A stretch of DNA of 64,000 nt, from NCBI GenBank assembly GCA_951406725.2, contig OX597816.1, positions 149,234,001-149,298,000 of the forward strand. Direction: 5' to 3'. The first letter of the stretch is position 1, and the number at the start of each line of letters is the position of its first letter. Made by a program: the position numbers and the translations under genes. Under the pieces are notes generated by a model. It ran no database searches, was not told the origin of the DNA, and worked only from the letters and a program-made list of their open reading frames with translations. Positions 1,804 to 63,985 of the stretch are shown one piece after another. Source of the DNA: Octopus vulgaris. Its lineage: Eukaryota.

Positions 1804-2163
1804 GTCAGTTGGGCTGTTTAGTTTCAGTTTGGTATACCATTTTGGTGTGGGGACATTGCTCGTCTGGAATATTGTTGGTATGGCATTCGGCTTCAGTAAG
1901 ATACGTGGGTTCTGCATAAACTGGAAGTTCTGTTCGAAACAATGAGGTTCAAAATGCAGAGTGCAGATTCGAAATCGGCGCCGTATGCTCTGGTCATCCG
2001 AACAGGCCATGTCGAGGAAGTTCTCTATCTGGCTGAAACTAATGTTCATGTTCTGGGCCCAGATTCGACACATTCCCCGATCTTTGGGGAAGCAGTGTAG
2101 CCTGATATGACGAGGGAGTCGGCCATCATGACTTGAACAACCGAACGCCTTACATTGGGGCAT
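1804..2163 (-). CDS. THAP zinc-finger domain protein A, coding exon 1 (120 codons, phase-0 donor)
   Basis: MPQCKAFGC...LHCFP...W...RICTLHF...LKPNAIPTIF has the complete C2CH THAP signature, the conserved P/W/F residues and an AVPTIF-like box. Donor GAC|gtaagg at 1804/1803; the rest of the listed ORF reads as intron. Confidence 0.92.
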
Positions 2164-32108: not shown

Positions 32109-32337
32109 TTAACCTTTTCATTACCAACCCGGCTGAAACCGACTCTGGCTCTGAGTACAAATATTTTGTTTTCATAAGTTTTAAATTAAAATCTTTCACC
32201 AAACCTTAGTCACAATTTATGTTCCTAACACTAGCTTAATGATAACTAAGTTATTTTAATAAACTCTTTGTTATATTTAAAATTAATTGAAAGAACCACA
32301 GAGTATCTCAAAATAAATACAGTAACAAAAGGATTAA
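32109..32337. mobile_element. TTAA-flanked MITE, family 2
   Basis: ttaa-ccttttcattac ... gtaacaaaagga-ttaa. Confidence 0.75.
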
Positions 32338-34068: not shown

Positions 34069-34118
34069 TGTTGAGAACCGGTGGGTCTGCTTTGATATTT
34101 GAACATTCTGGGTATCAC
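34069..34118 (-). CDS. 50-nt linker exon, phase 1 to phase 0 (xDTQNVQISKQTHRFST)
   Basis: Strong acceptor ttctttctgtttcag|GT and donor ACA|gtaagt; open in the frame required by the upstream phase-1 donors. Confidence 0.65.
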
Positions 34119-35172
34119 CTGAAACAGAAAGAAACTATTTTATCAACAAATGGGTAACAGTGGAAAATGACAAGCTTGCATTTATGCATGTAATTATAAA
34201 TAATAGGGTGAAGTTCCATTTCTGAGAATATGATACATAAGGAGTTGTAAGAAGAATAAACAGTTTAGTAGGCTGCCTGCATACATGAATCAGTTATGTA
34301 GTATAAAAACTATTTGCTGTTTCAAAGATAGAGGAACTGTTAAATCAACTGCCAGAGGTGAAATTAAACTTGCAAGCAGAATCTATCAAAGAAGGAAGAA
34401 CCAATATAATGTTCAGTTCATATTCTACAATGCATGTTTTTGATAAAAGTCATGATTTTCTGTTTTTCATTTCCAACAGTTGTTTTTGTGCTACTGCAAA
34501 ATTTCCAATAATAAATATAAAAATAATTATTTCAGTCTTGTGAGCTAGAAGTGAGGATGTATGGTGTACTTTAGGATACAAAAATCATTGTTTGCTTTTA
34601 GTTAGATAATAGTTTGATCCTTTAAAAAATTTTGATCACTAGCACATCAGTGAAGCAACATTACCGAACATACTTAATTTACAATATTTTCATGATTTTC
34701 TTTTCAAAAAAATTACATTCTCTAGAAAGAAGGAAGAGTACACAAGATAAAACAGTTAATGATTTAAGCAGAATAAACGCATACAAGAAAAAAAAAATAA
34801 ACATCAGTCATTGCTACAAAAAAATATAATTAATCACATTTTAAAGAGAATGATTGTTTAAATCTTTATTGATACAAGTCATAACACCATAATATTTGTT
34901 ATATACAAAATTTTATTACATACATTTTTGCCATTCAAACACTTATTTTAATAGAAAAATAATAGAAAATAACAAACAAACAAAAAAAACCCCACTTTAT
35001 TCAGTGCAGTAAGGATCTCCCATATATTTACATTCCAACCTTTCAAAACTTGAAAGATAATCTGTTTAAAACAGCCAATGAAATCTACTCATAAATCTTT
35101 CCAAATTGTTTTAATTTACAAAGCAATATGACCCTTCTCTTTCCCACTATAACTGGATTGATTTAAATTCAC

Positions 35173-35214
35173 TTCTGTGTTTTCTGTAATCCTTTGTTTT
35201 CTGAAAGTTTTTGT
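35173..35214 (-). CDS. Candidate exon: 42-nt internal phase 1/1, or an alternative terminal exon DKNFQKTKDYRKHRSEFKSIQL*
   Basis: Strong acceptor caattcttttcttcttctag|AC; weak donor GAA|gtgaat; minus-strand AATAAA near 34996 and 34865 would fit a terminal exon. Confidence 0.4.
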
Positions 35215-35343
35215 CTAGAAGAAGAAAAGAATTGAAACATTAATTTATAAAAATAAATATTTTATATGACAAAAATTATCATGAAATCCAAAAATGACAA
35301 AAATATATATTTAAGGTTATAAAATAAATAAAATTCAACTAAC

Positions 35344-35352
35344 CTGAAGGAG
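35344..35352 (-). CDS. Candidate 9-nt micro-exon (CTCCTTCAG), symmetric
   Basis: actttgtttctccag|CTCCTTCAG|gttagt, with strong sites on both sides. Confidence 0.4.
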
Positions 35353-35713
35353 CTGGAGAAACAAAGTTTTCTTTAAGAGTCAGCAATCAGGTTGAATGCA
35401 GCTTTCTACTTGCATCAATGAAAATCTTGCAAATCATGAATTAGGTATGTACAATTTCAAATATACTTGCTATTGAAATCATGGATTTTTAAGTATCTAG
35501 GCTGTCAGAACAAGATATTACAATTCAAATAGGTTTGATCATGATGCACTGATTATCTTCTTACAACTCACCATAACCAATTGTGACAGAAAATGGTACA
35601 CATACGTAACAATTCATGAACTTAATGAATTCAGCAAAAGTTTGAAGAGTCAAATTATTTAATATGAAAATATTTTAAAAGCATGAAATGTTTTAAAGTA
35701 TTACAGAAGTATA

Positions 35714-36410
35714 CAGGCATACCTCACCCTACGTCGTTAATTGGTTTCAGGAGACACGACTAAAGTCAAATTAACTTGTCTCTAGGCTAAACCAATAATA
35801 AACATTCCCACTTCTGTACTTTATTTATGAATGCATTTTCAATAATACATGGTTAATAAAAAGCTATTTTAAGCTTACAAACAACTAATTTTTATTTTTT
35901 AATACAGTACAGTAAAAAAAAAAAGTAATCTCAATTTACGAATACAGTTTGACGGTGTTTACTGTACATCGTATACGCCTTATTTATGAAAGTTGTTTTC
36001 TAATAAGACATGATAAAATAAAAGCCTCTTTTAAGCTTAAAAACCAAATTCAGTAATTATTATTAAATCATTTTAAATTTACCAATACATACAATTTGGT
36101 GTACAATTTCATGATTTTGTTCACTAAGCTAAACTCTTTTTTGGTGTGTATCTTAACATTTACTGTACTATTTTAATATGATTTTATATGCTTTTACCTT
36201 TACTTATTGTACAGTAACATGATTATGTGCTTTTAATGGTTTTCTAGTGATTTTACAATTCCAACATTTGTGGTAGACAGATGTAAAGTCGAGTAAAATG
36301 ACTTGATTTTTATTTTTCCATATATTATTTTTGAATGACTTAAATCGAGGTATGCTTGTATTATATGTACTGTAAAAATAAATTAACACAATGACGAAAT
36401 CTAAAAATCT
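35714..36410. mobile_element. Tigger/pogo-like non-autonomous element remnant
   Basis: TA|CAGGCATACCTC terminus typical of Tigger elements; the right boundary is uncertain. Confidence 0.45.
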
Positions 36411-37099
36411 GAATCTCTAAATGGATTTTGCTAGGGAAGACATGCCAGAGATGTAAAACAGAACAACTAGGTGTCTCTGAAGGACAAGTTACGAAACAAT
36501 TCTATAACTGGAGCAGTATTCAACCACAACTAAGTAACAGGTTTGGAAGAGGTTAAAGATAGTGATCATGAAGAAGCTACACTGAGAGCAAGATATCAAG
36601 TTTAAGCGTTGGGAAACCAGGAATAGAATTCTGTGACATGAGGATAAGGATCACATGGTGTTCCAAACACTAAGGTAGAATGTTTGAATCAAGAGGTTAC
36701 TGTGTGTGTGTGGAGGGGTTACACACATGTGGATGTGTGCATGCAGTTTCCTGCAAGGATGATGCATGAAACTCCTTCCATGAGATCTTGTTGAAAGTGG
36801 AATGCAAATGGGATAGTAACTACTCCAAGTAATGCAATTGTAAGAATTGATAGACAGTGCTATATTTTCAGTATCACTCAATTCTTTTAATTCTCTATAT
36901 ATTATTTCCAACTCAGTTGTCACATGTATATTTTGATGGAATTAGTTTGTTTTAGAATTGCTACAGTAATAAGTTACATGCATTTGCAAGTAGGCATTTA
37001 GACAAAGTCTTAATTCTGAATATAAAATGTTTCAACAGCAAAGGGTTGAAGATAGTGAAAAGAAACTCATATGGCATATTTTTCACCAACATACTAGAC

Positions 37100-37415
37100 T
37101 CTAGCCTAATGTTGCACTGTCTCTTCTTTCTGCTGAATGTCAGGAAGGCCATGAGCCAAGTTCCAGCAACATAGATAAGTCCCATCTGCTTTGATACATT
37201 TGTTCCATTGATTTTATGTCCTGATGGGTTACCAAGATTTTCAAGGAAATTGTTATAGTGACTGTGGAGACAGTGCAGTTTTATACTCATATTTGCTCCC
37301 AACTTTTGAAAGCTGTCCAGAATGTTATTGACTATTTTGGTGTAGTTAGCTGCTTTCTTGATGCCCAGAAAGTCATTTATAACTATTAGAAATGATTTCC
37401 AGGCTGTTACTACAG
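37100..37415 (-). mobile_element. Chapaev3-like (CMC) transposase C-terminal remnant
   Basis: AWKSFLIVINDFLGIKKAANYTKIVNNILDSFQKLGANMSIKLHCLHSHYNNFLENLG matches the recalled FLGN.K..NY...LG.NMS.K.H.LHSH...FPENLG motif. Confidence 0.75.
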
Positions 37416-37537
37416 TCTATGCTGGGCTACAGTCTTAATTAGTATGACAATTAGTGAATTATATATAATTAATAGAATTTTGACTCGAAATACTTCAATA
37501 ACGAAGAGGATAATCCATAATTTGTAAATGATGTTAC

Positions 37538-37567
37538 CTGTTGTTGATAGAAAATTATAAAGGGTTT
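37538..37567 (-). CDS. Candidate 30-nt symmetric phase-1 exon (xTLYNFLSTT)
   Basis: ctgctag|AAACC...CAACAG|gtaaca; open in phase 1; weak acceptor. Confidence 0.25.
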
Positions 37568-38691
37568 CTAGCAGTCACCATTTGATAGACATAGAAAATA
37601 ATCTATAACATATTTTAATCCAAATCTACAAAGCATAAACTATAAAAACAAACAAGGTTTCTATAAATACAGATACAATATCATCACACTCTATCCTATC
37701 ACCAAAATTGATACTTATCAAATGCTCCATCTAGAGACAAAATGAATACCTATGCAGGATAAAGAACAAAATTTTAGACTTATTCCCTACATCTACTTGA
37801 ATCTGAAGATATGAAGGAAAAAAAACCCAAGGTTAATGTCAATGAAATTAAGTCACAAGCTTCACTTACAAAAGTATTAGCACAACTACAATGTTATTTT
37901 ATATAAGTCTCTTAAATATACCAAGTAGTATATTACAGCAAAATATTTTCTTGGTAATTTACATGATTAAAAAAATATTTCCTTTTCTCTGAAATGCATA
38001 AAAACACTGAAATTAAAAACCTCGGGAAAAGACAACTATAAAGAAAAGAAAAAGAAATGATCTATACCCATCGAAGATAAAAAGTCTTATGTTGAACATT
38101 CTTGTTCAGTTCAAACTAAGATCACATAACGTACAAATGTTGAGTACTGTTAGTGTCTTTATTAGGTAAGTCAAATTGCAGGACTTGTGCTAAATTAATA
38201 TTATATTTCTAAATATCGACTAAACATATCGTTTTTTATTTAAAACGGTCTTTCAAGTATAAATAGTAAGCGTTCTTATATAAACATGATACTAAACATT
38301 CGTTTATACAATAGCGAAATATAAAGGATAGAATTTAAAAGCTGAACGTAAATTAGTATAGTTACAAACGGAAAGACAAAAACAATTTTAAGAGACGATA
38401 AGAGCATGAAATGCAACCAGATTAATTGTCTCTATAACTTCTCTACGTTATAGATCTAGCATTCTCTCAATACTCCACCTCCATCATTAGAGAAAGCTTG
38501 TACATTGCATGACGTCAAACTCAAGTCCGACTCAGGTGGATTCTCAAAATGTTTCTCTCACTCTCACTACGCTGATACTACTTAACTATCTCCCTCTTTG
38601 TATCTATTTCTCTCCTTCATACGGTCTACGTTATGTATAAGATACCAACAGCAAAACGTTGCCTGTTTAGTTCCCTAGTTTTACAACTCAC

Positions 38692-39133
38692 CTTTTTGGT
38701 TCGGCGTCTGAAAATTGAATCCGTATCTAGCTTGGAAGCGCTCATACCAATTATTACGGAAGCAAAATTCATTGTAACCAAGGCTGTGTGCTACTTCAAC
38801 AGCTTTTCGCTTGATTTTGGTGGCATTTAATTGTACTCCTTGACGACGAAGCTGTAAGACCCATTTGTATATGGCCTGTTCGACATCTCTATAAATTGTA
38901 CTTCTAATTCGCTTGCGTTGTGACGAGCCATTGTCTGTGAAATCTTCCAAAATACGCGCGCGGTTTTTCATAATAGTTGATAATGTTGTCGCTGGGATAC
39001 CGAATTCGCGGGCGATAATTTTTTTCTTTTTTGTGCCTTCGTCTACGGCACGTATTATAGCCACTTTTGTCTTGAGGAGCAAACCTTTGCGTTTGCAACC
39101 ATAAGGCTTCGATTTATTGATACCAGAAGTCAT
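38692..39133 (-). CDS. CENP-B/Tigger-type DNA-binding exon (HTH_psq/CENP-B_N + HTH_Tnp_Tc5), 147 codons, phase-1 donor
   Basis: KRKGLLLKTKVAIIRAVDEG...IAREFGIPATTLSTIMKNR and YRDVEQAIYKWV...R.QG..L....IKRKA...A..LG..EF.....W.ERF..RYG; donor AAG|gtgagt; no DDE domain follows. Confidence 0.92.
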
Positions 39134-39759
39134 TTTTTTTAAAGCTGCAGTCTACTTATCGCTTCTCACTCTACTCACTTTTACTACGTTATATTTAGAA
39201 TGAAGTCACACTCACTTCGTTCACTGCCTGCAATGATTGGCCTTAGAGTTAGAGAATTACTACTGAAAGATTTAATGCACTATGTGGCCTCTAGCAGCAC
39301 TTGAGCTCTCTAGTAGTAATCGTCTAAACAAACCAATGTATTGTAGCTGCATAGATTTTAGTTAAATAAACCGGATTCAATGAACTAAATTACTAAAGTT
39401 TTCATATAATAATAACAATAATAAATAACAGAAATACCGGAGGTAGGGGTAAGGATAAAGAGAAGTTATGATAGTATTTAAAGCGCTCGAATTTTGTTAA
39501 ATTGAACGGTGGAATATAAGGAGTTTCCTCATTACTGATTGTGAGTGGATGTGTATTGCGTTGGTCTTACACAATGTCTCGAAAAACAAACAAAAAACGC
39601 TTAAACAATTTCAAAGGAGGTAGGGGACATTGATTAATAGGAAGATTTATCACTATAAATCAAACAACAAAACCTCGATCTCTTTAGAAAGGAATCTTAA
39701 CACTGCATTGATAAAATGTTATAATGGAATTAATTTTAATATATGTATATATGTATATA

Positions 39760-39819
<60 letters not shown>

Positions 39820-40779
39820 CAACACACTGGGGGTAGCATGTGATTCCTTAAATTAGATATAACCTCTTTAAGAGACTGAACTTTACAATAGGGCAAAAAC
39901 TGAGGACCAGAATATGATATCGAAGTACAGATCCAGCAAAGATCTTTTTGTTTTCTTGGTTCTCTTCATACATCTAACAAGATACTTGTTTGAATTTGTT
40001 ATGAAATTCTGGTTTCACACAAACGCTTTATTTAATCAATATCTATGGATATTACATAAAAAGAACACATAGTTCAACCTTATTACAAATAGCAGCCAAA
40101 TGTCAAACCACATATACACTCTACAGTCCCTCAAAACGAGGATGAGACTGGTCAGGCCTTACTTGCCTTTCAGCTTTAAGTCTACTCGCTTTTAAAGACG
40201 AATTAGGGTTGAACAACAAACAAATTTTTTTTTACAATACATCAATTTTGTTTTCAGTCATTGGACTGCGGCCATGCTGTGGAACAGCCTCAACGGGTTT
40301 AGCCGAACAAATCGACCCCAGTACTTGTTTTTTAAAGTTTAGTACTTATTCTGTCGTTTCCTTTTGCCGAATTGCTACATTACAGAGGTAAAGAAACCAA
40401 CACCGGTTTTCAAGCAGTGATGGAGGACAAACACATTATATATGAAATATAACAAAACGAAGACCCACAAAATTGTATAATGTGACCTTTCATACTGAAT
40501 ATGTTAATTGAACTACGAAATATATTTATGAATTATTTCAGAATAGTTTCAAGTTAATGCTTCAAATTACCTCCCCTGTACTACGATACTATTTCACATT
40601 TCTTTCTAACTCCACGCGCTCCAAAGGACAAATAATTATAAAACTTTTGTGACAGCTACACCTACCACCGTCCCATGGACTTTCATAAGTAAGCTAAGAG
40701 ATAAATTTACTATAATTTAATTTTACTTTAAGCCGATTCTAGTACTCCTTTTTTATACGCGATCTTTCATTCATTCGTT

Positions 40780-42330
40780 TATAAAATACAAGCTTCTCTG
40801 TTACATGTCGGTCCGTTAACATTAATTTCTTTTATATTTTTTAAAAAGTAAGACAGACGGTACCCATAATTATTCAGAAACCTTCCAAGATTAGATGGAG
40901 AGAAGGCATCCTGAAACCAGAGATAAGACTTAAATGCTTGCAACATAGTGCATGCTGCTAAGGGCATCGAAGTGGGCCACAAAAGGATTTGAATAATGAA
41001 CACAAACAGCTGGAACAAATACTACAAGGCAACCTGCTATTATTTCAGTTCCATCAATTCATAACCCAAAATGATAAAATCCAAGTGTCACAATAAATAA
41101 CACAGCATTCTATCTGATGCTTCAATGGCTACCAATTTGTTGCTCTAATATAAATGAAAGATGTTCACAGCACCTAGGTTTCACAAGCAGTCACTTGCAT
41201 TGTAGAAAAATCACGGAGATCTGTCAAGATTCCAAACATCAAGTTCAAATTCAATTATAATGGTTTGCTACAATAAAACCATTTGCAACTCAGTACTTAT
41301 TAGCATTAAGCACAAAGTATTGGTTAAGGAAGGAAAGTAGGTTCCAATATTTTGCTTTCCTCATGTTGAATGGAATCACAGTGACAAATGTCATAATGAA
41401 CTTCTGTGTGGGACAATAACATAAGATCTTCAGAACCAAGTTGAAATTACAAAACTGCTACCTGATCAGAACAGCATAATTAACAATTATCTTAAAAGTT
41501 TAATTTCAGAAATGTAGACTATTTTCCCTTGATGTACCTGGAAAGGTGGCGGCTCATGCTGCATTCAAGTCCCCTTTCAACTCGGTAATAAATGAAAGTG
41601 CTACAGAAAGCATCAGCAAAGGAACTGGGATGATAGAGGTTCGAAGAAGTTGCAAATTCATAATTTGGAATGAATATACAATGCTTCACAAAGTAACAGA
41701 AGTTTTGGACAGGGCATTGTATAAACAAAAAGATAAAGGGGAAATCCTTGCTTTTATGTTGGAGATTTTAGACAGATACGGGCTGTTGCTTTAGGAGAGA
41801 CAAGAACAGATGAACATTTACTTAAGATCTCATATCTTTGGAGAAATGTAATGAAATTACACTTATCTACCAATTTAAAAGACAATCCATTTGCTTATCA
41901 GTTAATTGGCCAATCTGTAAACAAGTCACTGCAACAATAGAAAATTCAAACCAAATGAAGAGGAAGAATTAATATGGGAACAGTAAGCAAAACACTACCA
42001 TCTGCTCACAAACCAAAAGGAATGTCTACTCAAATCTTTCTGAATAACTATCAGAATCACAGAAAGAGTAATATTAGTTCTAAAGAACAGTTGCAGCTGA
42101 TGGCATCAACACAGTTTCTGCAGTAGCTTCTACTAAGAACCATTGTTACTAATCTTTTGAAATAGTACTTGATATCCAAAAAGAGTTTCTAAATTAACTA
42201 GAAGTTTCAGGAAACCTACTACAAAAATTTAAATTTTTAAATAAGGAAATGGCTATCATGCTCCTTATAACTTGAATTCAGCAGGAACAAAATGTCACTG
42301 GTAAGACTATAACTTTTTGGACATGACAAA
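40780..42330 (+). mobile_element. Decayed Helitron RepHel fragment (PIF1 helicase region)
   Basis: AHAAFKSP...ISKGTGM..V...CKFIIWNEYTMLHK..EVLDRAL, GDFRQI..V, YLWRNVMKLHLSTN and an EFLN.LE.SG-like segment; many frameshifts. Confidence 0.85.
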
Positions 42331-44529
42331 GAGGTATTCATGAGTATGTTTAAGAATCTTGTTTCCTGACCCTGTGGTTTAAGACTCACTTTCACTGCTC
42401 AGCCCTTGAGCAAGTATCTTCTACATAAATAAATTAGAAAACCTTTCAACTCACCCCACTCCCGTATTATTGCAAAATATTCCCAAATACACGTTTGACG
42501 TGAAAAATTAGTATCTTTTATCTCTTATGTATACAATGTCATTTGTAAATTTTCTTTTTCATTAAACACAAATTTTACAACTCTTAACTGATCGGATTGT
42601 GAAAGTTAGGGTTATGTTCATTGAAGATCATATGATCTTCAGTATTTTTACACACACTAACAAAAAATCTGGGTTCATTGATTCTGAGGAACAATACGAT
42701 AAACATTGGATTTTGTTTCTCTATCATAAGCAAGATAAGGACAAATATAAAGGCAAAAGCTATCCAGACCAAATTATTTGACAGGCAATACATCCAAATC
42801 ATCAATTCTCATCCTTAATAGAACAGAAAATAATGAACTTATAAAAATTGATAGACACAATGAAATGGAAATCCATACATTTTTTTTTGTATTGATTCAA
42901 AATATAAAGGCAAAATTTAAATATGTAAATAATGAAATACTTATATTTCATTGTATATACAGCATAAAGCAAGAATTGTAAGTTTCCATCATTCCTAAAT
43001 TAGAAATTATTATTACTAACAAGTTTTATTTAGATGAAATACGAAACATCAAAGAAACACGTCAAGATAATTTATGAATAGAAGTGAAAGACATCACAAA
43101 TATCATCACTACTCGATCACCAAAATGAAAGCAGCTTTAGGCTATGGTTTAAAATTAAAACGACTACATATTTTATGTGAATACTTTAATCTATAGAAGA
43201 ACCCACAAACACTAGTCAAGTTAAGTTTACAGTTGAATTAAATCTCTCACTACATAGAATCATTCGATAATTAACACTCAGATTAGATTGATGATATACG
43301 CAATCCAAAGATTCAATGTTACACATGTAGAGTGAATAAAACACTAGATTTGATTAGGTCAATAGATTATCCACTCTTTTACATTCTGATAGTCATAAAT
43401 AACTTATACTTAACCCCCTTAATGCTCAAATTATTTTCTTCATCCCAAATTTTCCTTCTATAACTTTATAAGAACGAAAAAAAAAAACTTGGATGCGTTG
43501 CCAATATTCATTGAAATGTGTGGTTTTTAGAAGACACTTTAGTCTTATGGTTAATGGCAATGCTTCGGTATTCGTATTAAGAGTGACATTTTAAAAAGCA
43601 ACTGCTTTTAGATATATCTCTAAAATCGTTGGTAAATTAATAATCAATTCTTGTGAACTCAAAAAAAAAAGACCATGGGCATTAATGAGTTAAGCTTGAG
43701 GTTTAAAAACTGCTAGTCAAGTTAAGATAAAAGAGAATTAACTTAGTTGGAGGTGATCCAACGAAGAAACAAACTTAAGCCATTAGCTTCACTTAGAAAC
43801 TCAACCACAATTTAATATAACACTTTTCACCAGTTTCAGAATGACAGTGAGTTAAAAGAAAAATCAATAAATTTCAAACTAAAATTATCATATAATCCAC
43901 AACCTTTCTTATACTGAGCACATACGGTCTCTCCAGATTTAGTAAGCGTGTAAACGTTCACTAGTATATTTGTTCAGTATTGTTTTAACAGTTCTTCTAA
44001 AATAAATTGCATCTATCAGTTTAACAGCTTGTGTACGAGTAAATTAAGAACATTCATCTTTCCAAATATTGAATAAAAGTATCCCATCCTTTTCTATTTA
44101 TATATAACAATCGTTTCTTCAAGTGAAATTTACATACATAGTGATGGTTTGTCACTCTTTTTGATCTTAGAAACATACCATATATTATTGTTTATACAAT
44201 ACCGAAATAGAAAGAACAAGGAATTTGAATGCAGAACGTAAATAATATGGTTAGGAACGGAAAGACAACAGTGATTTTTAAGAAACGATGAAGATACAAA
44301 ACGTGACCATAGACTGATTGTCTAGATTTACTACGTTATATATCTAGCAGCCAGCCTCTAAATTCTCTACACACTACATGACGTCAAACTCGAAGTCCAA
44401 CTCAGGTGTGTTCTCATATTGTTTTTCTTTTTCTTTCTCTCTCTCCAACGTTGATGTTACTCGACTCTTTCTATGAGTGTATTTCTCTTTCATATACTCT
44501 ACGTCTGCTACCACTACCATCACACTTTT

Positions 44530-44990
44530 TGTTTATCTCACGTTCTTAGTCAGGCCCATGAAAACTGTTATCTAGCCAGAAAGGGCTCTTATCAATTATT
44601 CAAACGCAAAATCCACTACAATCAAGACTGCGTTACTTCTACAGTTTAATTTTTGATTTCAGTAGAATTTAGTTGTACTCCCTGACGACGAAGCTGTAGG
44701 ACCCATTTCTAAATGGTCTTTCCGACATCTTTATAAATTGCACCTCTAACCGTCCAACCCATGCCAGCAAGAAAGGACGACGTTAAACGATGATGATGAT
44801 CTCGCTAGTATTGCTATGAGGCATAGTCAGACAAAGTACGAGTGCAATTTTTCATAATGGCTTATGTCATTGCTGGCATACCAAAATATTTTTTGTTTCT
44901 TTTTTTTTTTTTTGGTACCTTCATCTGCAGCACGTATAACAACCATATAAGATTTCGATTTACTAGATGACATTTGCTTTTGACCAAACA
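44530..44990 (-). pseudogene. Pseudogenised duplicate of the CENP-B HTH exon
   Basis: Aligns with 38690-39140 (e.g. ttgtactcc.tgacgacgaagctgta.gacccattt); has indels, a premature stop, an altered donor context and an insertion of about 50 bp of SINE tail at about 44749-44800. Confidence 0.88.
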
Positions 44991-45959
44991 GCTTCAAGAT
45001 AACGTCTGCTTAACGCTTCTTACATTACTCACTTTTTACTACACTAAACAACATCCTTGTAAATGGCCTCAAGTAGCACTCGAGTATACAAAACGAATTA
45101 TTGTAGCTTTTATACATTTAAGAGAACTTCGAAAATGTTTTATGGAAGTTAATGAATGGAAATTGTGAAGAAACTAAAATAGGTTTTAAAAGAAGGAAAT
45201 GTGTTAAGTGGAAGTTGAGTGTTGGCTATTTTGTTAAATTGAATGGTGGAATTACAGAAACTTAACAGCTTTTCGCCCCCTTTGGTGCGTGTATATTACA
45301 ATAATTTACACCATAACTAAAAAATGTAATTTCACAGCAGAAAAACTTAATATATGGATTTATTGTTACATTTGGGGACGGTCATCTTTTGCCAGTAAAC
45401 ACATGCTCTATTTACTTGATCTTCATTTTATTAATATTGAGTGAGAGAGCAGTGCATGCCATCAAAGCGACATTGGGGTAAGCTATATGAAGCCCAGTAC
45501 ACCCATCATGGCTACCTGTCTGATAAGAGCACACCAGGTACATGCATCACAACCATATGTGCATGACCTTCCAGGTGGGGCCCAGTGAGAATTTTCATTA
45601 GGTCAAGTAGCCCATCCTGCTCAAATGGTCCCTGAATAAAGGTTGTTTAAGGATGTTGAATGTAAAACCCATGTTTCCAGAGGTGAATTATTCAAATCCC
45701 AAAGAATTCCTATCAACATGCAACTATGATGCCCCCCCCTCACATTATTTCTGTTTGCAATTAGAGATGCACATATCGTCAGCCACCAAGGGACATGCTC
45801 AACTGGTTTTGGTCAAACAACTGACAAGAAAATCTGTGGTATTGAGCAGAATATTTACTGTAGCCCATCTTTTATACCAAAGCGAAAACATGTACATGAT
45901 AACACTTCCAATCACTTAAAATAAAAAACCATGAGGGCCAGTGCCTGGTACTGCATCAG

Positions 45960-46176
45960 GGCATATATTATTATAATTATCATTATTAAGGCAGTGAGCT
46001 GCCAGAATCATTAGCACGCTAGTCGAAATGCTTGCCGTGTTCTGAGTTCAACTTTGCCTTTCATCCTTTTGGGGTTGATAAATTAAATACCAGTGAAACA
46101 TTTGAGGTCAATGTAATCGACTAGTCCCCTCTCCACAAATTTCAGGTCTTGTGCCTTTAGTAGAAGGGATTATTAG
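45960..46176 (+). mobile_element. Second tRNA-SINE family (ggcagtgagctg...gagttcaa...ctttgcctttcatcctt...attatt tail)
   Basis: Related copies at about 16315-16520 and 16590-16760. Confidence 0.6.
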
Positions 46177-47253
46177 TTTATTTTCCAGAGTTCTCTTGTA
46201 CATTCTGTGAGCTCTTCAATGATTTTCTGTCTCTTGTGTTTCCTCTTCTCTCTGGTTTTATCCTGTCTATACCATTTTGTCTTTTGCTGAAGAGGTCACA
46301 GAATGTGTGACGAACTACTACTACTACTACTGTTGCTGCTAAAGTGAAGATATAATAGTGCACGTGTTTATTGGCAAAAGATGACCATCCTCTAATATAA
46401 CAAAATCTATTTCAACACATGATTTCATATCAACAATTTTGCAAAACATAAACATATTAATAATTTACTACTGCACAAAATAAATAAATAAAAAACTGCT
46501 TCAAAAACATTAGTTTTACCAGTAAAGAATGGAAATAACACTGAAGAAATGAAATGTTATAATGACAGTAATTGTAACCATATATAAACAAAAATATAAT
46601 TTTGATACATGCAAAAAGGCATCTGATTCATGTTGCATAAGAAACTGAACTGCAGTTTGCAGGCCCAAAAACTGAAGACCAGTATGTCTACAGTAGTGTA
46701 TATACTATGAATGGTTTCTCTACCACTAGCACAAGGCCACAAATTAATTAGTGAAATAGATAATCAAATCAACTGCAATACTAAACTAATATTTTATTGG
46801 TAATAAATGAATGAAAAGTGAATCCAATCCTGCTGATAAACAAAACAACCATTTCTGCTGTTCCACAAATACTTACAATATATATATATATATTATAAGT
46901 AGAAGTGCTCTTAAAAAATTAGTATACATAAAAATTATTTTGCTTCTTGTATGCTGGTATGCTCAGTAATATATAACTTTACCAATTATTTACTTCATAA
47001 ATAACCATGAAACCTCCAACCAAAGAACAATAATTTACATGATTGTTCAACTTGCCAAAAATCGCAACCAAATCTCCCTGAAACCACACCTTTATGTCTA
47101 AAAATAGACCAAACCAAATAACCTACTCCATTATACCGTATTGCTAAAAAACAAAGGTTCATCATAACTTGAATGCCTTTCAACACAGGGTATTCTGATT
47201 TTTGTCAGACAGGTAAACAGAAGTTAAATATGTACAACATTCTCTCTCTTTTA

Positions 47254-47291
<38 letters not shown>

Positions 47292-47399
47292 ATCATCATC
47301 GTTTAACGTCCGTTCTCCATGCTAGCATGGGTTGGACGGTTCGACCGGGGATCTGGGAAGCCAGAAAGCTGCACCATATATGTATTTAAATTAATTGTC

Positions 47400-48120
47400 T
47401 CATGACTGGTACAGCCAATTATTGTAGGTGTTCATTCTAGATATTCTGGCTGTTGTCTCTATTCATATGTGGAAGGGCTGCAGAACAGAATTTCTTTGCT
47501 TGCTACTTCTTGGCCCCACCCCATAACTATGCCCTGGAGAATAGTTTTGGATAGGGAATCATGGTAGGATACATGTCCATATCAGATGAGCTTTTGTTGT
47601 TTCACTGTGGTAGGGCATGTCTCTCACCTGCCAACGTATCTGGTAAGTTATTGCCTAACAAAGCTGTTGGCTTTGTGCTTTTTACATAGGGGACAAATAA
47701 CAGCCCTCTAAGCAACCGTACTCAAATGCCTGGATTCTAAATTCTGTGTTAAGCTGTAACTGTTCAGCTTTCAAACCCATGTAAAAATTTCTAAGTCAAG
47801 GAGAATTCCTGCAGTTTGAACTTTGATGTAACTACACTGCTGACAATGTTTAACTTCATCATGGCAGAAAAGAATATACCAAATCATACTTTTTATCTCC
47901 TTTTCTGAGCTGCTGTTCTTAAAATGGATCCAAAGTAAAAGCTGTCTACTGTTTCAAGTTTTGCTTTACACAGTATGTTGGTTGCTGCATTGTAGTTGTG
48001 TCTCTTGACTAGTATTTTACTCAATCCTGGACTAGCTTCCATTCCATATGCTCCAACCTTTTTCCAGTCTAGCGTTAAATTCCTAGAGATCTGTTTCATT
48101 GCCACCCAGCCCCATTAGGT
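47400..48120 (-). mobile_element. RTE-like LINE remnant
   Basis: LETVDSFYFGS.L and downstream segments resembling the RTE ORF C-terminus; degenerate. Confidence 0.55.
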
Positions 48121-49299
48121 TGATATAGTCAACAGAATGCCTCCTTTCCATAATCTTATGACACATGTAGCCAATCAGAATTCTTTAAAATATCACTTGG
48201 AAAAACAGGAATAAGTTTACACTAAGTAGCTAATAAGACAAAGTGTGCAAGGCATCCTATTTTTAAGTGAATTATTTATATATGTATAAATATCCCATCT
48301 ATTAAATTGCTTTTGTTCTCTAAAAATCTTTGTTCACACACATATGAGAGAGGAGCTAATCAAAGTTTTTTTTAGAGAAAAACAATTTAATAATTAGATG
48401 GGATAGATCAAGTACCTTATCAACATGAAATAAATGTTAATCACAAATATCGCTTTATACCTTGATGCATGTGGCTGGGCATGCAATATTTTTTTTATAA
48501 CTCACTGGGTCTGGAGGAAGAGGCCATCTTTTGCTGGCCCTCTGATGCTGTTAACATTCTACTTAAGATATTGCAAGTCAATGACTACAGGAAAGAAATG
48601 AGCAAGGAGATAGAAGTTGACATTTTGGACACAGTAATTGGTATGGAGACTGGATGGAAAGACAATATGGATAATAGTAGGTGAAGAGACAAAGAGTCAG
48701 AAGTACTGGAGTGGAGATGTGAGACTAGTCACCTTTGAGGAGCAGTGGCCACAGTAGTAAAAGTAGAAAAGGCAGAGAGAGGAAGTAGGCATGAGTGAGT
48801 CTATGAATGATTTTATGCTAATCAGCTGGGTGGCCTTTTTCTGTCAGTCGACTAGGTCGTCTGTGTGAATAGCAACAGATGTCCATCTTTGATGAGGGAA
48901 CAATATTCCAATGGGTCTCACCTGAACCTTGCAGAAGGTCAGAAAATGTTGGGGGCTGAAATATTTTCTGGCTCTCCTGAAAAGAAAGGTCAGTCTTTCA
49001 GATATGTCCCTCGTTACATTAAGGATGACTATTTCTCATCGAAAGCCTTCTAAATGAAGTGAAGAGAAGCATTTAGAAATGACCATGAGGGCTCTAGTTG
49101 CATACTGCTCATGTTCAAGGAGGTGACATACAATGACATTTTCTTGATATGAGCAGTGCTTGTGTGTTGCTCCTTTTTTACTGTTGAAAGACACAATTTG
49201 CCATGTTCCAATTGAAAAATGCTTTTGAGGTCTCCTATGTTCATAAAGTTAGTGTATATTTTGATGCAACTGTCTAGATTTCATGTGAATGACATTTTG

Positions 49300-49700
49300 T
49301 TAGGTAAAATTAGGGGAGATGAAAGGTGGTATGCTACAGCGAAGTGGCAGAAGATAAAGGCATGCAAGGCGGACAGAAAAAAGCACTTCAAAGAGATACT
49401 CAAAGCCTCATTGAAAAGCTGTGAGATCAACCCTGACACCTGGGAAATGCAAGTACAAGACCACCCTCCCTGGCAAAGCGGCATCAGCAGAGGTGCCACT
49501 TCCTATGAAGAGAACAGGATTGCAGGGGAACAAAGAAATCTTGAACTGCACAAGTCAGCGTCAACTCTTTGCCTTCAGTCCAAGCAGACCACTACAGTCT
49601 TTTGAGCACGCATTGGACTGAACAGCTGGACACATTATGACCAATCTTCTTCTCCCAGGTGATATCTTTGGTCATCATTAACAACAACAGATTAACATCA
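49300..49700 (+). mobile_element. RTE (BovB/RTE-1-like) LINE 3' end
   Basis: KKHFKEILKASLKSCEINPDTWE...QD...W...I..GA..YEENRI, typical of RTE C-termini. Confidence 0.75.
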
Positions 49701-50490
49701 TACCCACCAGAGGGATTTGTGCATTTAATCATACATAGTCAGGAAGACATAGGATGAGAAGGTGAAGCAAGATCTTTGAATGTGGGTTCTCAGAGGCAAT
49801 GACAAGTGATTGTGACCATTGGGAAATTTGCTGTTCTTGAGAAGACTCATCAAGCTAAGTGAAATCATAGTTGTGGCTGGTGCTGGTGGCACATAATAGC
49901 ATCTGTGCCAATAAAAGGCATTGACTACACTCTCTGAGTGGTCAGCATTAGGAAGGGCATCCAGCTGTAGAAACCAAGCCAAAATAAGACTGGAACCTGA
50001 TGCAGCTCTCTGCCCTACCAGTTGCAATCAAACTGTCTAACCCATATCAGCATGAAAAGCAGACATTAAATGATGATGACAATGAATGATGTACATTTGA
50101 TGACCACAGTTGAATGCTGAAAAGATGCAGAACGTGTTCTATACTGAGAATATTCCACAGTGCAAAAGACTCAATGTCTAAATGGTAAGTTAGTAACAGA
50201 GTTTCACATCCTTGACTTCTAGGGAGATCGAATGAGATCTCTGGTATGGTTACATTAAACTCCATATGAATTGTTACAATAAATTATGACAAAGTTATCA
50301 GATTCACACAACAATATCTTACACAATGCTTTCTAACTCTGTATTTGTAACAACTGAATTATAAAACTATTCAACAACAAAAAAGACTTGAAATCAATAA
50401 CTAATCTCTTACACCATTTTACTTATGAGATACTTTAGAACCACTTGAAAAGATAACATTATGCACTCAAATAGATACATTTATTCTTAC

Positions 50491-50903
50491 CTTGAGCTTT
50501 TCTAACTCGCTTGTCACTAATGCCATGAACAAATCGGAAAGCCTTTGAACAAACTCTAATAAACCTCCCATCAATATTTAAAAAATATTCCCATGTACAA
50601 GTTCGACGTGAAAAGTTAGGATCTTTTCTCTTATGCAAACACTGTCCTTTGCAAGCTTTCTTCTTCATTAAATTAGACAAATATAAATTTTGCAAGTTCC
50701 AACTAGCCAAGTTATGAAAGTTAGTAAATAATGTGTACTTCACATGATCTTCAATATCTTTATAAGAACAAAATATTTGAGGGCACTGACACTGGGTTAC
50801 AATATCATAAACAGTGGTTTGTGTTCCAATATGTTTTTCCATCATCAATTCTTTTGTTTTTGTACAGCACAATTGAGAGGTAGAACAAAGGCAATTAAAT
50901 TTT
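50491..50903 (-). CDS. Cys-rich putative DNA-binding exon resembling the N-terminal region of Sola-type transposases; phase-1 donor
   Basis: CQCPQIFC...F.NF.NL..WNLQNLYL...R.CTWEYFL...IRVCSKAFRFVHGISDKRVR; uninterrupted 137 codons; donor CAAG|gtaaga. The 5' boundary is uncertain (phase-2 acceptor at 50903, or ATG at 50845). Confidence 0.75.
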
Positions 50904-51378
50904 CTTTTAAATTATAAGAAAAAGAAATGCATGCTATTCAGTAGTCCATTTTGTCTATCATGACAAACCATGTGATATTTTAAAGGATTCTGATTGGCTA
51001 TATTTGTCATATGCCTTAAAAAGTAACATGAAAAAGTGGTAAGTAAAAGGGAGATAACTAATAAGGACGACATAAGCCATACAAAGGAAAAAATTGATTT
51101 CTTGCACAAAGAAAAAAAAAACGCAATCAATTCCCTCATTTATAGAGTACAAAATAATGTATTGAAAATATATTATAGGGTAGAAAATAATAGAAAACTG
51201 GTAGAAGGAAGCAAAATGCAAAAGATCAAATCCCAAATCTTTTTCACCACATATATATATATATTTTTTTTATTATTAATACTTGGCAGAGGTTACAGTG
51301 ACTCAAAGCTGCAAGCTTTGCGCATCAGCCCTTGAGATACTCTAACTTTTGCTGATAATTAAGACACACACACACACA

Positions 51379-51410
<32 letters not shown>

Positions 51411-51533
51411 CACACACACACATTTATATTTTGAGTTCTATTTTTCTGTTTGCACCACTAAGCCTATACAATGGGGACACACATGCCAAAGCTCAAGATC
51501 TTTAGTGAGACACCACTTTATGTATGAATGTAC

Positions 51534-51586
51534 CTGATGTAACCCAGACTGCAAGATTGATGCAACATAATATGATGTCCAGCATC
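51534..51586 (-). CDS. Candidate upstream exon for the Cys-rich module (DAGHHIMLHQSCSLGYIR), phase 0 to phase 2
   Basis: ggatag|GAT...CAG|gtacat; the end phase matches the 50903 acceptor. Confidence 0.25.
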
Positions 51587-54500: not shown

Positions 54501-55379
54501 CAATTTACAAAAAGGTGAACATAAGTGGTCCAGAGGATTGGACAGGATGAATGGGTAGGTAAGTTTGCAAGAGTGTTAAAAGAGAGTAGCAGATGGATAG
54601 AGATGGAGATAGAGGTGGATGCAGTGAATTATGATCAATGGTGAATATAAGTAGTAAGGAGAAGGTGAAAACAATAGGAGGTGCACAGGTGATGTGAAGT
54701 GTAAGCAGTGTGCAAGAGATGTACAGTGTTAGGTACAAGGTCAGGAGCACATAAGAGTGGAAATAATAGGAAGCAAATATAAGTGAGTAGTGGGGAGGCT
54801 GTAAAGGAGAAAACAGTGTTCAGTGGAAAATAAGGTGGTCTGGAATGATACAGAGAATGCAAGAAACAAAAGTGGCTCCAGGGAGGGTGAGTGGAAGTGT
54901 AAAAAGGTGGGGGATGAAATATGTGCATGCGGTGCTGCACTCATATAATTACAGCAGTTAAATGAAAAGTGCCACTATAAAATGAGCCCAGAGGGTGAGG
55001 AGTGTTAGGAAGATGAATTGTGGGGAAGACATAGGGACAGATTTGCTGTAGGGGCACAGTCATAATATGCTTTTAAGGTCTCCCTTTTGCTGAGATGCAT
55101 GAGTCTTCTCAAGCATAGCAGATTGCCAATCAGTTTAGTACATTGTTATCACCAATGAGAATTCTAACAAGTCAATGAGAGCCATTGCCATGTGTCAAAA
55201 TCAACAATTAGCTGTGCATGACGATATCAAGTACAAAATCTGTACTGAGAAGAGAACAGTTCATGCCCAAAAAGTGAACAGGAGGAATCACAAATGGCTC
55301 TGTGATAGATCTATTGAAATCCCCATCTTGGAAGTTATGAGCATGTCATGCCTCCTCACATATCCCCACAAGTCTTAAG

Positions 55380-55760
55380 GTCAATAGAGGTAGCCTCATC
55401 AAGACAATGGAAACAGTTGTCAAGTCCAAGATTGAGAGGGTAGTTTGGAAGAGGCAGTACATATACCACCAAGACTGATTCTCCTTACACAACCAGCATG
55501 AACCAGGAGTGGATGGCCAAACATTTTCATAATCAAGTTATCTCTAACATTTGGTGTCCGAGCTCTCCTGATTTAAAACCCCTGGATTACAACATCTGGA
55601 GTGTCAATGAGCAGGAGACCAACAAGCATGCCCTTAATACTAAGGACTTGTGGAGGTTTGCTGTTAGGGACATAATGGCCAACATGAATAAGGATCACCA
55701 GTTCAACACAGTCATTTCAGAAGCAGTATTGAGGCACTAATCAAGGTTGGTGGCAGTTTT
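55380..55760 (+). mobile_element. Tc1/mariner (DD37D/maT-like) transposase C-terminal remnant
   Basis: YIYHQD...QEWM...WCPSSPDLKPLDYNIWS matches the WPPxSPDLNPLDYxIW motif. Confidence 0.85.
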
Positions 55761-55779
55761 ATCAATTAGCCTTTTGCTG

Positions 55780-57005
55780 CGTATGTCATTGTCATCATTT
55801 AGCATCCATGTTCCATGCTGGCATGGCTTGGATGGTTTGACAGAAACCAATGTGTCCAAGGACTGTATAAAGCGCCAATGTCTGCTTTGGCATGGTTTTT
55901 ACAGCTGGCTGCTATTCCTAATGCCAACTACTTTACAGTGTGAACCAGGTGCTTTTTTTTGTGCCATCTGCACTAATGAAATAGATACCAGCAGGACTAT
56001 GAGCCCTTGGGTAAGGGATCAGCTTCATGTTAGTGGACAAGGGGATTACAAATATGCATACCAAAAACTATATAAATACATTGTTTTTTTTTTTAAATAT
56101 TTTTGTCTTCTTTATATTAAAATTTTGTTCTCAAATAGTTAAGAAACCCTGTAGATACTTAAATATATAAACATACATGCACACAGACATATACAAATAG
56201 ACACATGCACACACATGCATCTTTGCCATCATTTCTCTCATTCTTTTTCTCCTTGTATTACTCTCTAACATACTCTCCTTTCCTTTCCAACTGGGTATCC
56301 ATGTATGAACAACATGACACCTATCTCAGTCCTTCAATACCTTAAATCTCTCAATTGGCACAATACTATCAATACTCATCGATACTATTCCCTGATCCCA
56401 GTTGAGGGATTTTTCCTTTTTAGTCTCCTTTTTTCTTGCAAGGTACTTGGTGACTCTGTTTGTATTGGTGCCACATAAAATGCACCCAGTACACCCTGTA
56501 ATGTGGTTGGTGTTAGGAAAGGCATCCATCTATAGAAACCATGCCAAAACAAAGGGGACTGGTATGGCTGAGCCTTGCCAGCTCCTGTCAAACAATCTAA
56601 CCAATGCCAGCATGGAAAATGGATGTTAACTGATGATGATACATATTTTATACATATATACACACAGTTTTATATATCATCATCGTTTAGCGTCCGCTTT
56701 CCATGCTAGCGTGGGTTGGACGGTTCAACTGGGGTCTGGGAAGCCAGAAGGCTGCACCAGGCCCAGTTTGATCTGGCAATGTTTCTACAGCTGGATGCCC
56801 TCCCTAATGCCAACCACTCCATAAGTGTAGTGGGTGCTTTTTACGTGCCATACGAGTCTGGCAAATGGCCACGATCGGATGGTGCTTTTTATGTGCCACC
56901 AGTACAGGGGCCAGACGAGGCTGGCAACGACCACAAACGGATGGTGCTTTTTTTTATATATATATCATCATCATCGTTTAATGCCCGTTTTCCATGCTAG
57001 CATGG
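55780..57005. mobile_element. Dense cluster of (GAT)n-tailed SINEs, including a tail-to-tail inverted pair
   Basis: Copies at about 55785-55990 (-), 56435-56640 (+), 56676-56950 (-) and 56965-57005 (-). Confidence 0.8.
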
Positions 57006-57043
<38 letters not shown>

Positions 57044-59037
57044 GACAGACACACACACATACACATCATGGGCTTTCCTGTCATAGGTAACAGATGAGTT
57101 CTGCAATTTCTTGCTGAACAACCTGCACGGATGATTTGTTCATATTGATCAAATGTTTGTATTGTGCATTAGCTTACTTCCTCCATCAAACTGACACTGT
57201 CTGCACAGGTGTACAGTGTGTCACATTTCAGATGTCAATGTGATCAAAAAGGAATCTGAGATGAATTGTTTTGTTTACGAACACAATGTATTGTCGGGTC
57301 TGGGTTTTGATCCTGAGTGCAAGACCTTAACCACTAGGCCACATGCCCTCTCTGATAATGATTTCCAAAGTTAGCTTAAAAGTCAAATCATTTACAAAAA
57401 TGTTAACTTCGTCAATTAACAATAAACGGTTTGGTGCCCAGGTTTGTATATACACATATATACCTATCTCAAACTACACACATGAAGCCATAAAGCAGTT
57501 ACCTATTATTTATAGTTTTAGGATGCTCCAAGATATTCAGTTATCAGATGACATTCTCAAGAAAACTTATACAATTGTTATGAGGTCAATAACATACATA
57601 TGTATGGTGATTGCGACATCTTCACAGATGACTTTTGTCTCCTTGTGCTTCCTCATTGTCAATGACATTGCTGACTTTCTGTCTATGACCTCTCAGATAA
57701 CTATTCAGTTATGTTGCAGATCTCCATGGTTTAAAGCATCGGTGAAAAAGTTGTAACCTTCAGTACCTTTCCAACTGGTTAGCTCTGCACATGTCTCCAC
57801 TCTTCCATAACCTTAGGGCTTTCAAAAGATGGAATGACAAAGGAAGTCACCATAAACGGACATCTGTACATCATTACATTATAGTGATAAATGCTTGTAT
57901 ATCATGAGTACCACTCTCTAAGTCTCCATGACTAGTGCCTAGTGACAGGCTGAAGCAAGATGTGCAGTAATCACATGAAACTGCAGGTTTTACATCAGTG
58001 TCCTTCTTTTAGAATAATGCTGTGGCAATACATAGGGATCCCTCATTCCTGATGGTTTTACTGTGTACCTTGATATCAACCAATGGTATTTCTGTGTCCT
58101 GCACTTAGAGCGATTGTCATCATATTTGCTAGTTAACGTACAGATGGGATCCTGACAAGTACTACTACTTCAGGTCAGAGTAGACCAGGAAATAATAGAG
58201 GTTAAGAAGTGGTTCCACACTCCTAGGAACCCTGAAACTCCCGAACCAGAGCCCCACTACTGGATGCAGTTTAAAGTCATACCCATACATACATACATAC
58301 ACAGATATATTGAACTCCTGTCAGCAGTCCAACACAAACCAGCATACAAAATGGGACATTAAAAGACAGAGATGATGATGAGACATACATGTATATATAC
58401 ACAATATATCTATATCAATTAATCATTATATGCACACGGCTTGCCCAATAGAAATTTTTTTGATTTTGTAACAAAATTCCAATGTTTAGATTGCTTAGAT
58501 TTGTGCTTTGTTCATGCTAATAAAATATGCATAGTTGTGGTGTTTTCTTTTGCATTTTTCTGAGATGTACAATGTATATTGGACATAGAATTCTCAATAC
58601 AAAATTACAAAAATAGTTGGCAAATAGCACAGCAAAGAAATAAAATTTTGTAAAATCACAATATCATATGAGCATACAAAATGAAATAATTTCAGGCACA
58701 AAATATATGTGACCTTTAGGACAAATACACTATAAATAATATCTATTTCTGGAGTGAGGTAAGAAGCAGTAGTAAAAGAAGCTATTATTATTAAAACAAA
58801 TAAACCAACATTGAAGAACTTATAAAAAATTGTGAAACAGGTATAGCTATATTGCAAGGGAAGAATAATAATCTCTTACTTTTGAAGATGTTTCTTCAGA
58901 AGGTAAGAATGTATAGTATATGAATGGAACTTCATATTTAAACATGACTCAAAAGCAAGTTAGCTATGAAGGGTTTCTTGCTCATGAACCACTTCATAAA
59001 AGATATTTATGAAAAATGAAGAAAAAGAGGCACTCAC

Positions 59038-59309
59038 AAGAGTTTCTCTCATACGAATTAGTTGCAAGCAGCAATGGATTTTCAGGTTTAATATCATGAC
59101 TTTGAGGTACTTTGGGTACATTGTTGAATATTGTAGGAACAGCATATCTCTGAAGTAAAGCCCGCCCCCCTGGCTTGATCATTTGGAAGCAAGATTTTTC
59201 AAAATGTTGACTGCATATGTAGGTGTAATGGCTAGGAGTCCAGTTCTGACGGGCAAGAGCACGGACCCATTTTTTCCACAGACCTGGCTTTTTACGCACA
59301 TCAGGAAAT
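59038..59309 (-). CDS. THAP domain protein B, exon 2 (phase 2 to phase 1)
   Basis: ttcctttccttttcatttag|A TTT CCT GAT gives FPDVRKKPGLWKKWVRAL...WTPS....ICSQHFE...AVPTIF; donor CTT|gtgagt. Confidence 0.92.
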
Positions 59310-63914: not shown

Positions 63915-63985
63915 CTGTGGAAGGAAATGCCGCTTCCAGTCTTGTGTTTACTGCTACAACCAAACACAGCACAGAAGTTCACCAT
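63915..63985 (-). CDS. THAP domain protein B, exon 1 (MVNFCAVFGCSSKHKTGSGISFHR), absent from the ORF track
   Basis: ATG at 63985, CxxxGC motif, donor CAG|gtaaga in phase 2, joining exon 2 in frame to complete the THAP domain across a 4.6-kb intron. Confidence 0.92.

Follow-up and report, generated by a model that had tools for sequence, protein, structure and literature searches.

The window analysed here, 64,000 nucleotides (nt) of Octopus vulgaris contig OX597816.1 (G000:C3:149234001-149298000, in a genome of 2.8 gigabases), contains part of a gene on the minus strand and was studied together with 400 kilobases (kb) of downstream and 200 kb of upstream flank. Counted from its 5'-most exon near window-relative +130 kb, the gene spanned about 193 kb. 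It contained 32 candidate DNA-binding exons or exon groups, referred to as heads, all on the minus strand between window-relative +120 kb and -60 kb (about 180 kb). The heads belonged to at least six unrelated Pfam families and matched THAP, CENP-B, BrkDBD, HTH_psq, FLYWCH, DUF4817, and other helix-turn-helix (HTH) domains. Further matches were to DUF3504 (slightly below cut-off) and, weakly, to zf-C17orf113, while 3 heads, among them a cysteine-rich frame (Cys), had no Pfam match. Of the 31 THAP matches genome-wide, 10 fell in the head array, on a single strand. The heads entered a common backbone at four points, which were, in order, a 40-nt exon, a 50-nt exon (A2), a 96-nt exon, and exon A. 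Exons A, B, and C (L008) lay downstream, with a BTB domain encoded by B and C and a stop ending exon C. Pfam BTB passed its cut-off in exon C and in full proteins. In P0024 the domain occupied residues 323-426 of 697, C-terminal to the variable head, and its best solved relatives were the BTB domains of NS1-BP, ZBTB18, and SLX4. With a probability of roughly 0.88, this is one octopus gene in which about 30 varied DNA-binding heads, likely transposon-derived and likely with promoters of their own, are spliced onto a common backbone ending in BTB; the same figure applies to A2 being a shared internal exon of that large gene.

Contigs of four public runs, each from a different study, were collected over 33960-35420, and loose ends at 34118-34121 were mapped to donors. 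The runs were taken as RNA because the contigs join exact GT-AG sites. Exon A2 has the borders cag/GTGAT...AACA/gtaagt and reads (C or G)DTQNVQISKQTHRFST; the phase 1-to-0 exon that the earlier note had drawn here, in frame after either C or G, was thus confirmed in its details. Six upstream exons joined acceptor 34118. The CENP-B donor 38692 did so in 4/4 runs, the THAP-B donor 59038 in 3/4, the 40-nt exon 88249-88210 (L024) in 3/4 (1 direct read, 2 from a two-contig consensus), and a Brinker-domain exon at window-relative 65529 (L022) in 2/4. Two L023 exons, one THAP (77141) and one further Brinker (74511), were each found in 1/4 runs, from a mixed consensus string. Loose ends mapped exactly for donors 59038, 38692, 65529, and 88210; the two mixed strings were fitted by L024 with 77141 and L024 with 74511, the only fitting pairs among 4648 candidate donors, and the annotated proteins P0035 and P0032 end at the same sites as these L023 donors. 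The acceptor is therefore neither unused nor fed by the CENP-B chain alone. On the other side, donor 34069 joined the 96-nt exon (L005:3473-3378), 70.6 kb downstream, in 4/4 runs (3 direct, 1 resolved). Seven annotated proteins had a direct join to A2 and covered five heads (THAP-B, CENP-B, two further THAP, and one Brinker), and the protein-derived head ends coincided exactly with the RNA-derived donors wherever both existed. As a side observation, A2 also had a minor acceptor at window position 27000 (minus strand) in 1/4 runs, where the first codon is a stop and a head-only product lacking BTB would result. The 40-nt exon joined the minor exon beginning at 35214 in 1/4 runs; the 3' end of that minor exon is uncertain, with a repeat at 34962-34995 skipped.

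Given introns of up to 70 kb, the heads could be attached in trans, as at the fly loci mod(mdg4) and lola, and not in cis. The 70.6-kb intron after A2 does hold about ten more promoter-like CpG-rich starts, and passages of PMC11426971 report trans-splicing for the fly loci. Cis-splicing nevertheless suffices, with all heads lying on one strand upstream of the acceptor and each using the nearest backbone exon, and trans-splicing is considered very unlikely.

A search with exon B returned Octopus bimaculoides LOC106877732 isoforms, O. sinensis LOC115209932, one Argonauta protein, and one Sepia protein, and exon B of the window's gene was identical to the Octopus proteins. The same gene is present in RefSeq as O. 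sinensis LOC115209932 and O. bimaculoides LOC106877732, with isoforms numbered to at least X36 that carry heads on this backbone; THAP-B corresponds to X11 and CENP-B to X10, both joined to A2. Argonauta hians GAB1599653.1 is also the same gene. The RefSeq automatic models are named 'uncharacterized protein' and carry no description of tiers, phases, or origin. A total of 58 proteins were retrieved; the largest cluster has 32 members, of which 15 were listed, and about a dozen isoforms fell outside the set. Exon A was contained in 34 of the 58. Among these 34, the 96-nt exon occurred in 26, the 50-nt exon in 16, and the 40-nt exon in 9, and none skipped a backbone exon downstream of its entry point. 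The RNA contigs documented the six joins into 34118 and the join from 34069 to the 96-nt exon, while the continuation beyond the 96-nt exon, via A, B, and C into BTB, was seen in the annotated (predicted) proteins alone, where 23 of 24 supported heads occurred as full proteins. The 96-nt exon peptide, compared with 1.84 billion representatives, gave 3 matches, of which two were the Octopus and Argonauta versions of this gene, with no wider range shown.

The earlier note had proposed A2 as a possible shared adaptor exon. A dedicated adaptor, used only by phase-1 heads to reach a phase-0 backbone, would agree with its conversion of phase 1 to 0 and with 6/6 heads with supported direct joins being phase 1. 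However, the phase-0 heads further upstream pass through it too, by way of the 40-nt exon, in 9/9 retrieved proteins that start upstream of that exon, and the 40-nt exon joined it in 3/4 runs. A dedicated role is thus highly unlikely. The preferred reading of A2 is a backbone exon that all promoters upstream of it use constitutively, because the pair of 40-nt and 50-nt exons (90 nt) could be skipped in frame and was kept in all 9.

Support from proteins, a supplement row, or RNA was available for 24 of the 32 heads, and in 24/24 the join was to the closest backbone exon downstream. Phase-0 heads entered at the 40-nt exon (4), the 96-nt exon (8), and exon A (6), and phase-1 heads at the 50-nt exon (6). 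Scoring with a simple donor matrix that ignored position gave phase 0 as the best donor in 23/25 frames outside the phase-1 zone and phase 1 in 5/7 frames inside it. Heads between the 40-nt and 50-nt exons are phase 1 and those elsewhere phase 0, probably because the donor must fit the next backbone acceptor; matching phases would then be a consequence of position, a fit that a BTB protein requires. The three phase-1 donors on which the earlier note was built were reproduced, with last exon bases at 59038 (T/gtgagt), 50491 (G/gtaaga), and 38692 (G/gtgagt) and coding lengths that are all 3n+1, namely 71+272 = 343 nt for THAP-B, 355 nt for Cys from its first ATG, and 442 nt for CENP-B. Of the three proposed domain exons, THAP and CENP-B pass Pfam cut-offs and Cys matches no Pfam family at cut-off. 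Shared use of 34118 was likewise borne out for THAP-B and CENP-B by direct junctions, and extended to four more exons, with Cys seen in 0/4 runs and 0/58 proteins. The caveat that three phases match by chance about 1 time in 9 is superseded by the direct junctions for the first two exons and still applies to Cys.

The CpG observed/expected ratio (o/e) was 0.73-1.27 at 31/31 tested starts (30 heads and the 5'-most exon) versus 0.07-0.67 in 8 internal exons (Mann-Whitney p = 9e-6). The Psq head was grouped with the internal exons because annotated transcripts place exons before it; Psq and Cys were both CpG-poor. In invertebrates, where gene bodies are methylated, retained CpG is read as unmethylated promoter DNA, and the CpG content makes it likely that each head has its own promoter. 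The head would be selected by the promoter that fires, its donor would be joined in cis to the closest downstream backbone exon, and every later backbone exon would be retained, so that a head would be useful only when its donor phase matches the next backbone acceptor. The predicted products would be transcription regulators with differing DNA targets that pair through one common BTB domain.

Several points weigh against the reading of a single head-to-BTB gene. Two of the 7 heads in the phase-1 zone have a phase-0 best-scoring donor, their phase-1 site coming from annotation or RNA (P0028 and P0032 correct these two). RNA contigs of the runs used gave no join between the 96-nt exon and exon A, and 8 of the 32 candidate heads were without transcript support. 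The RefSeq models are predictions, which may rest on RNA similar to the four runs, and the contigs are not full-length transcripts. CpG content is an indirect marker of transcription starts, and 46% of random positions in the region reach a CpG o/e of 0.5. For Cys, no junction at 34118 was seen in 4 runs, in each of which CENP-B was the sole contig at that place, and no copy was seen among the 58 retrieved proteins; contigs omit rare forms, so that a missing junction is not proof of absence. Cys also lacks a CpG-rich start (CpG o/e 0.26, as in internal exons). DNA binding, dimerisation, and a regulatory role of the isoforms are predictions.

The heads could instead be separate small genes or transposon relics, with the junctions representing functionless low-level read-through splicing. 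Unspliced contigs do cross the CENP-B donor, the database protein P0001 ends shortly past it, and there are short terminating alternatives at 35214 and 27000. On the other hand, the junctions recur across four studies, the head frames are open with phases that follow position, and redundant duplicated heads decay. THAP-B is moreover identical in Argonauta at all but 6 positions of residues 1-90 and its path is kept there, with THAP-B, the 50-nt exon, the 96-nt exon, and BTB colinear (P0012); 12 of the 16 residues of A2 are also identical in Argonauta. This explanation is exceedingly improbable, and one gene with shared backbone exons is preferred. Features in the window are listed in Table 1.

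Table 1. Features of the head-BTB gene located in the window (window positions).
Feature	Position	Strand	Description
THAP-B exon 1, coding part	63915..63985	-	ATG 63985; 24 codons; phase-2 donor; CpG-rich start
THAP-B exon 2	59038..59309	-	272 nt, phase 2 to 1; Pfam THAP 45.5 bits; P0024, P0012
Cys-rich open frame	50491..50845	-	Candidate exon; 118 codons from first ATG; phase-1 donor AAG/gtaaga
Broken duplicate of CENP-B head with its CpG-rich start	44190..44990	-	68% identity over 626 nt; stops, frameshifts
Broken duplicate of Cys exon, donor lost	42410..42760	-	70% identity over 253 nt; stops, frameshifts
CENP-B double HTH head	38692..39133	-	Single exon from ATG; CENP-B_N and HTH_Tnp_Tc5 over cut-off; P0052, P0053
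Minor alternative acceptor exon	34996..35214	-	Phase 1; stop after 22 codons; joint 35344 to 35214 in 2/4 runs
Shared 50-nt backbone exon A2	34069..34118	-	Phase 1 to 0; second of four entry points; contigs and proteins
THAP-A head	1804..2163	-	Downstream of A2; phase-0 donor; joins 96-nt exon directly; Pfam THAP 52 bits; P0033

The first exon of THAP-B carries the first two Cys of the THAP zinc finger, its 5' untranslated region extends beyond the window end, and it matches residues 1-24 of P0024 (100%) and P0012 (96%). The complete head scored 62.2 bits for Pfam THAP in P0024 and matched the solved THAP1 structure 2jtg (E 8.8e-16). Near the CENP-B head, unspliced contigs across 38717-34996 (minus strand) pass through its donor and intron with a 129-nt intron (35343-35215) removed. 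An AATAAA lies near 35000, and these contigs possibly represent a short CENP-B-only transcript; P0001 and a second database protein, P0002 (56% identical), both end shortly past the CENP-B donor position. An exact-match look-up found 0/8 unspliced frames from the window or L022 in the protein collection. A search for longer proteins carrying the CENP-B head returned none, a false negative in view of P0052 and P0053.

Other frames were observed on the same strand. Inside the 70-kb intron, window 26107-25358 (stop-to-stop 26314-25355) holds an intronless 250-codon frame with repeated LDRDLEKW-like motifs and no Pfam match, near a CpG-rich stretch; it ends TCG/GTATGA, the pattern of another head's validated phase-0 donor, and may be a further head or a nested gene. 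A Tc1-like HTH frame (L024:6394-5687), followed by transposase remains, has a CpG-rich start and ends in a phase-0 donor 1.7 kb upstream of the 40-nt exon; though without transcript support, it may be a capture in progress. A broken THAP-like frame (L028:6900-6700) lies directly upstream of the 5'-most first exon. Downstream of the gene, about eleven more BTB cassettes are arranged in tandem over L010-L048 (window-relative -90 to -270 kb), many following STPR-like, FLYWCH, CENP-B, or ZSWIM3_N/FAR1-like heads of their own and annotated as separate genes (e.g. P0015-P0023). A constant region beyond the BTB cassettes was rejected, as exon C has a stop and what follows is a gene, presumably IQCA1-like by its sequence, for an AAA protein. 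The exons of this gene, which bounds the array, are at L050-L053 (window-relative -280 to -320 kb).

The Cys frame was single-copy in a genome search apart from a local broken duplicate. It is also open from a phase-2 acceptor at 50903 (AAG; 16 pyrimidines in 21). Contigs over 31300-51200 included Cys contigs that were unspliced and shallow and stopped before the donor. Repeat contigs dominated this set, where the 15 joints listed out of 104 included no splice of interest, and it is uninformative on the Cys junction. RefSeq numbering runs mostly by length, and no number is free between X10 (730 amino acids) and X11 (697), where a Cys isoform starting at its own ATG would fall (about 701). Pfam matches to CTE_TERT and Sec6 fell short of the cut-off and were set aside, a likeness to the N-terminal region of transposon proteins of the DUF7869 type had no Pfam support, and atlas neighbours were unnamed eukaryote clusters at 0.93-0.96, of low recognition value.

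A tandem duplication of the unit from Cys to CENP-B (50845-38692) was followed by reciprocal decay, the first copy retaining Cys and the second CENP-B. About 26% of sites differ between Cys and its duplicate, and 3-5 frameshifting indels separate the two. Cys is nonetheless open, and in neutral simulations its frame stayed open in 0.2-4% of trials. The frame looks maintained, neutral decay being unlikely, and its use as an exon has about even odds. In particular, Cys could be a genuine internal exon of rare use and not a dead relic; it might serve THAP-B exon 1 as an alternative second exon via 50903. In support, the frame survived while the duplicate gained its indels and lost its donor; the Cys donor is strong and phase 1; and the 50903 acceptor leaves the frame open to that donor, the closest upstream CpG-rich start being THAP-B exon 1 with its phase-2 donor. 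Against this stand its absence from the 4 runs and 58 proteins, the even spread of differences from the duplicate over codon positions (24/26/27, unlike 35/32/44 with some third-position excess in CENP-B), the AAG rather than YAG acceptor, a phase match expected by chance 1 in 3 times, and the missing Pfam family. On balance, this rare internal exon is put at slightly under an even chance.

Regarding the origin of the locus, the 96-nt exon opens on the final His of a THAP domain, followed by that domain's tail. It completes four half-THAP heads ending in CSK or CTK (three protein-supported) by supplying the last zinc-binding His, which suggests that backbone exons may have originated as second exons of single heads. 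For all other upstream heads the same exon (L005:3473-3378) is a linker only. Two O. bimaculoides isoforms (X4/X7; P0036, P0037) start with a THAP domain without counterpart in the fetched region of the O. vulgaris genome. That THAP belongs to a dispersed element family (L062-L064) with 23 matches in this genome (57-84% identity; 10 with internal stops), none of them at this locus. In three inspected copies the shared sequence comprised some 400 nt surrounding the THAP frame plus a short stretch at the far end; one copy had a phase-0 donor at the splice place of the isoforms, and one had inverted ends. This would fit a recent capture of a mobile element, the alternative being loss from the O. 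vulgaris genome. For THAP-B, CENP-B, and Cys, it is the domain family alone that would point to a transposon origin. The Sepia protein has a backbone homologous to exons A to C (50% identity) but a different head, and an array there cannot be read from one protein.

Insertions of DNA transposons into the locus would bring a promoter, a DNA-binding exon, and a donor; local duplication would add further heads, and the second exons of multi-exon heads would turn into backbone for heads arriving upstream. We lean slightly towards the view that the locus is a standing landing pad, where a sense insertion with the locally right donor phase would at once yield a new BTB factor, and where the backbone would grow from old second exons and record the order of capture in alternating phase zones. 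Capture would be ongoing, because two O. bimaculoides isoforms start with a THAP of the dispersed family that is missing at this place in O. vulgaris. The locus offers a testable model for new transcription factors arising by serial transposon capture, with a splice-phase rule predicting the insertions that can be retained. One gene accounts, through its isoforms, for a large share of the THAP, CENP-B, Psq, and FLYWCH factors counted in octopus, and of the 21 THAP matches outside the array at least 6 belong to the dispersed element family; the locus is misread when gene counts or expression studies collapse it or split it up. Speculatively, if heads were chosen per cell and paired through the common BTB, combinatorial DNA-binding specificity would result in an animal with a large nervous system.

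Parts of the gene have been catalogued before. Passages of Mukherjee and Moroz 2023 (PMC10027918) list Octopus THAP-BTB, CENPB-BTB, and Psq-BTB proteins, and 11 rows of its supplement Table 1 carry LOC106877732 under separate gene names. The BTB is ascribed there to 'BTB/POZ transposable elements', and in those passages the proteins are treated as separate factors with the shared locus not discussed. No description of the locus architecture, including under both locus identifiers, was found in the literature, of which few subscription papers and preprint supplements were covered, so that one may exist. The isoforms were thus already known in databases, while no account was found of unrelated heads arrayed in tiers and phase zones on one BTB, an arrangement that is apparently new. 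The capture-by-splicing model of Cosby et al. 2021, as summarised in passages of PMC12062965 and PMC10027918, likewise has transposon DNA-binding exons spliced onto a host regulatory domain. In those summaries transposase capture forms separate genes, whereas octopus captures would accumulate in one locus on one host tail.

Variable-first-exon clusters are a close known arrangement, in which alternative 5' exons lie in tandem on one strand and share the exons downstream. In protocadherin and UGT1 clusters the variable exons are copies of one kind with one constant acceptor. The octopus locus differs in its unrelated domains, which are interleaved with constant exons and use four entry points in two phases. 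PMC3325998 and PMC1885805 describe tandem first exons in the clustered protocadherins and UGT1, each with a promoter and joined to common exons. The fly genes lola and mod(mdg4) likewise have one BTB common to many isoforms with different DNA-binding domains, according to passages of PMC11426971, which class that BTB as Tramtrack-type and report this type as not found in Mollusca. The octopus order is the mirror image, with the variable part N-terminal and BTB behind it, and promoter choice rather than last-exon choice likely selects the head. Octopus heads come from at least six unrelated domain families, those of lola and mod(mdg4) mostly from one. The octopus locus is a variant of variable-first-exon genes, yet it stands outside both the protocadherin/UGT1 and the lola/mod(mdg4) classes because its variable exons are unrelated to one another, use four entry points, and lie ahead of the BTB.

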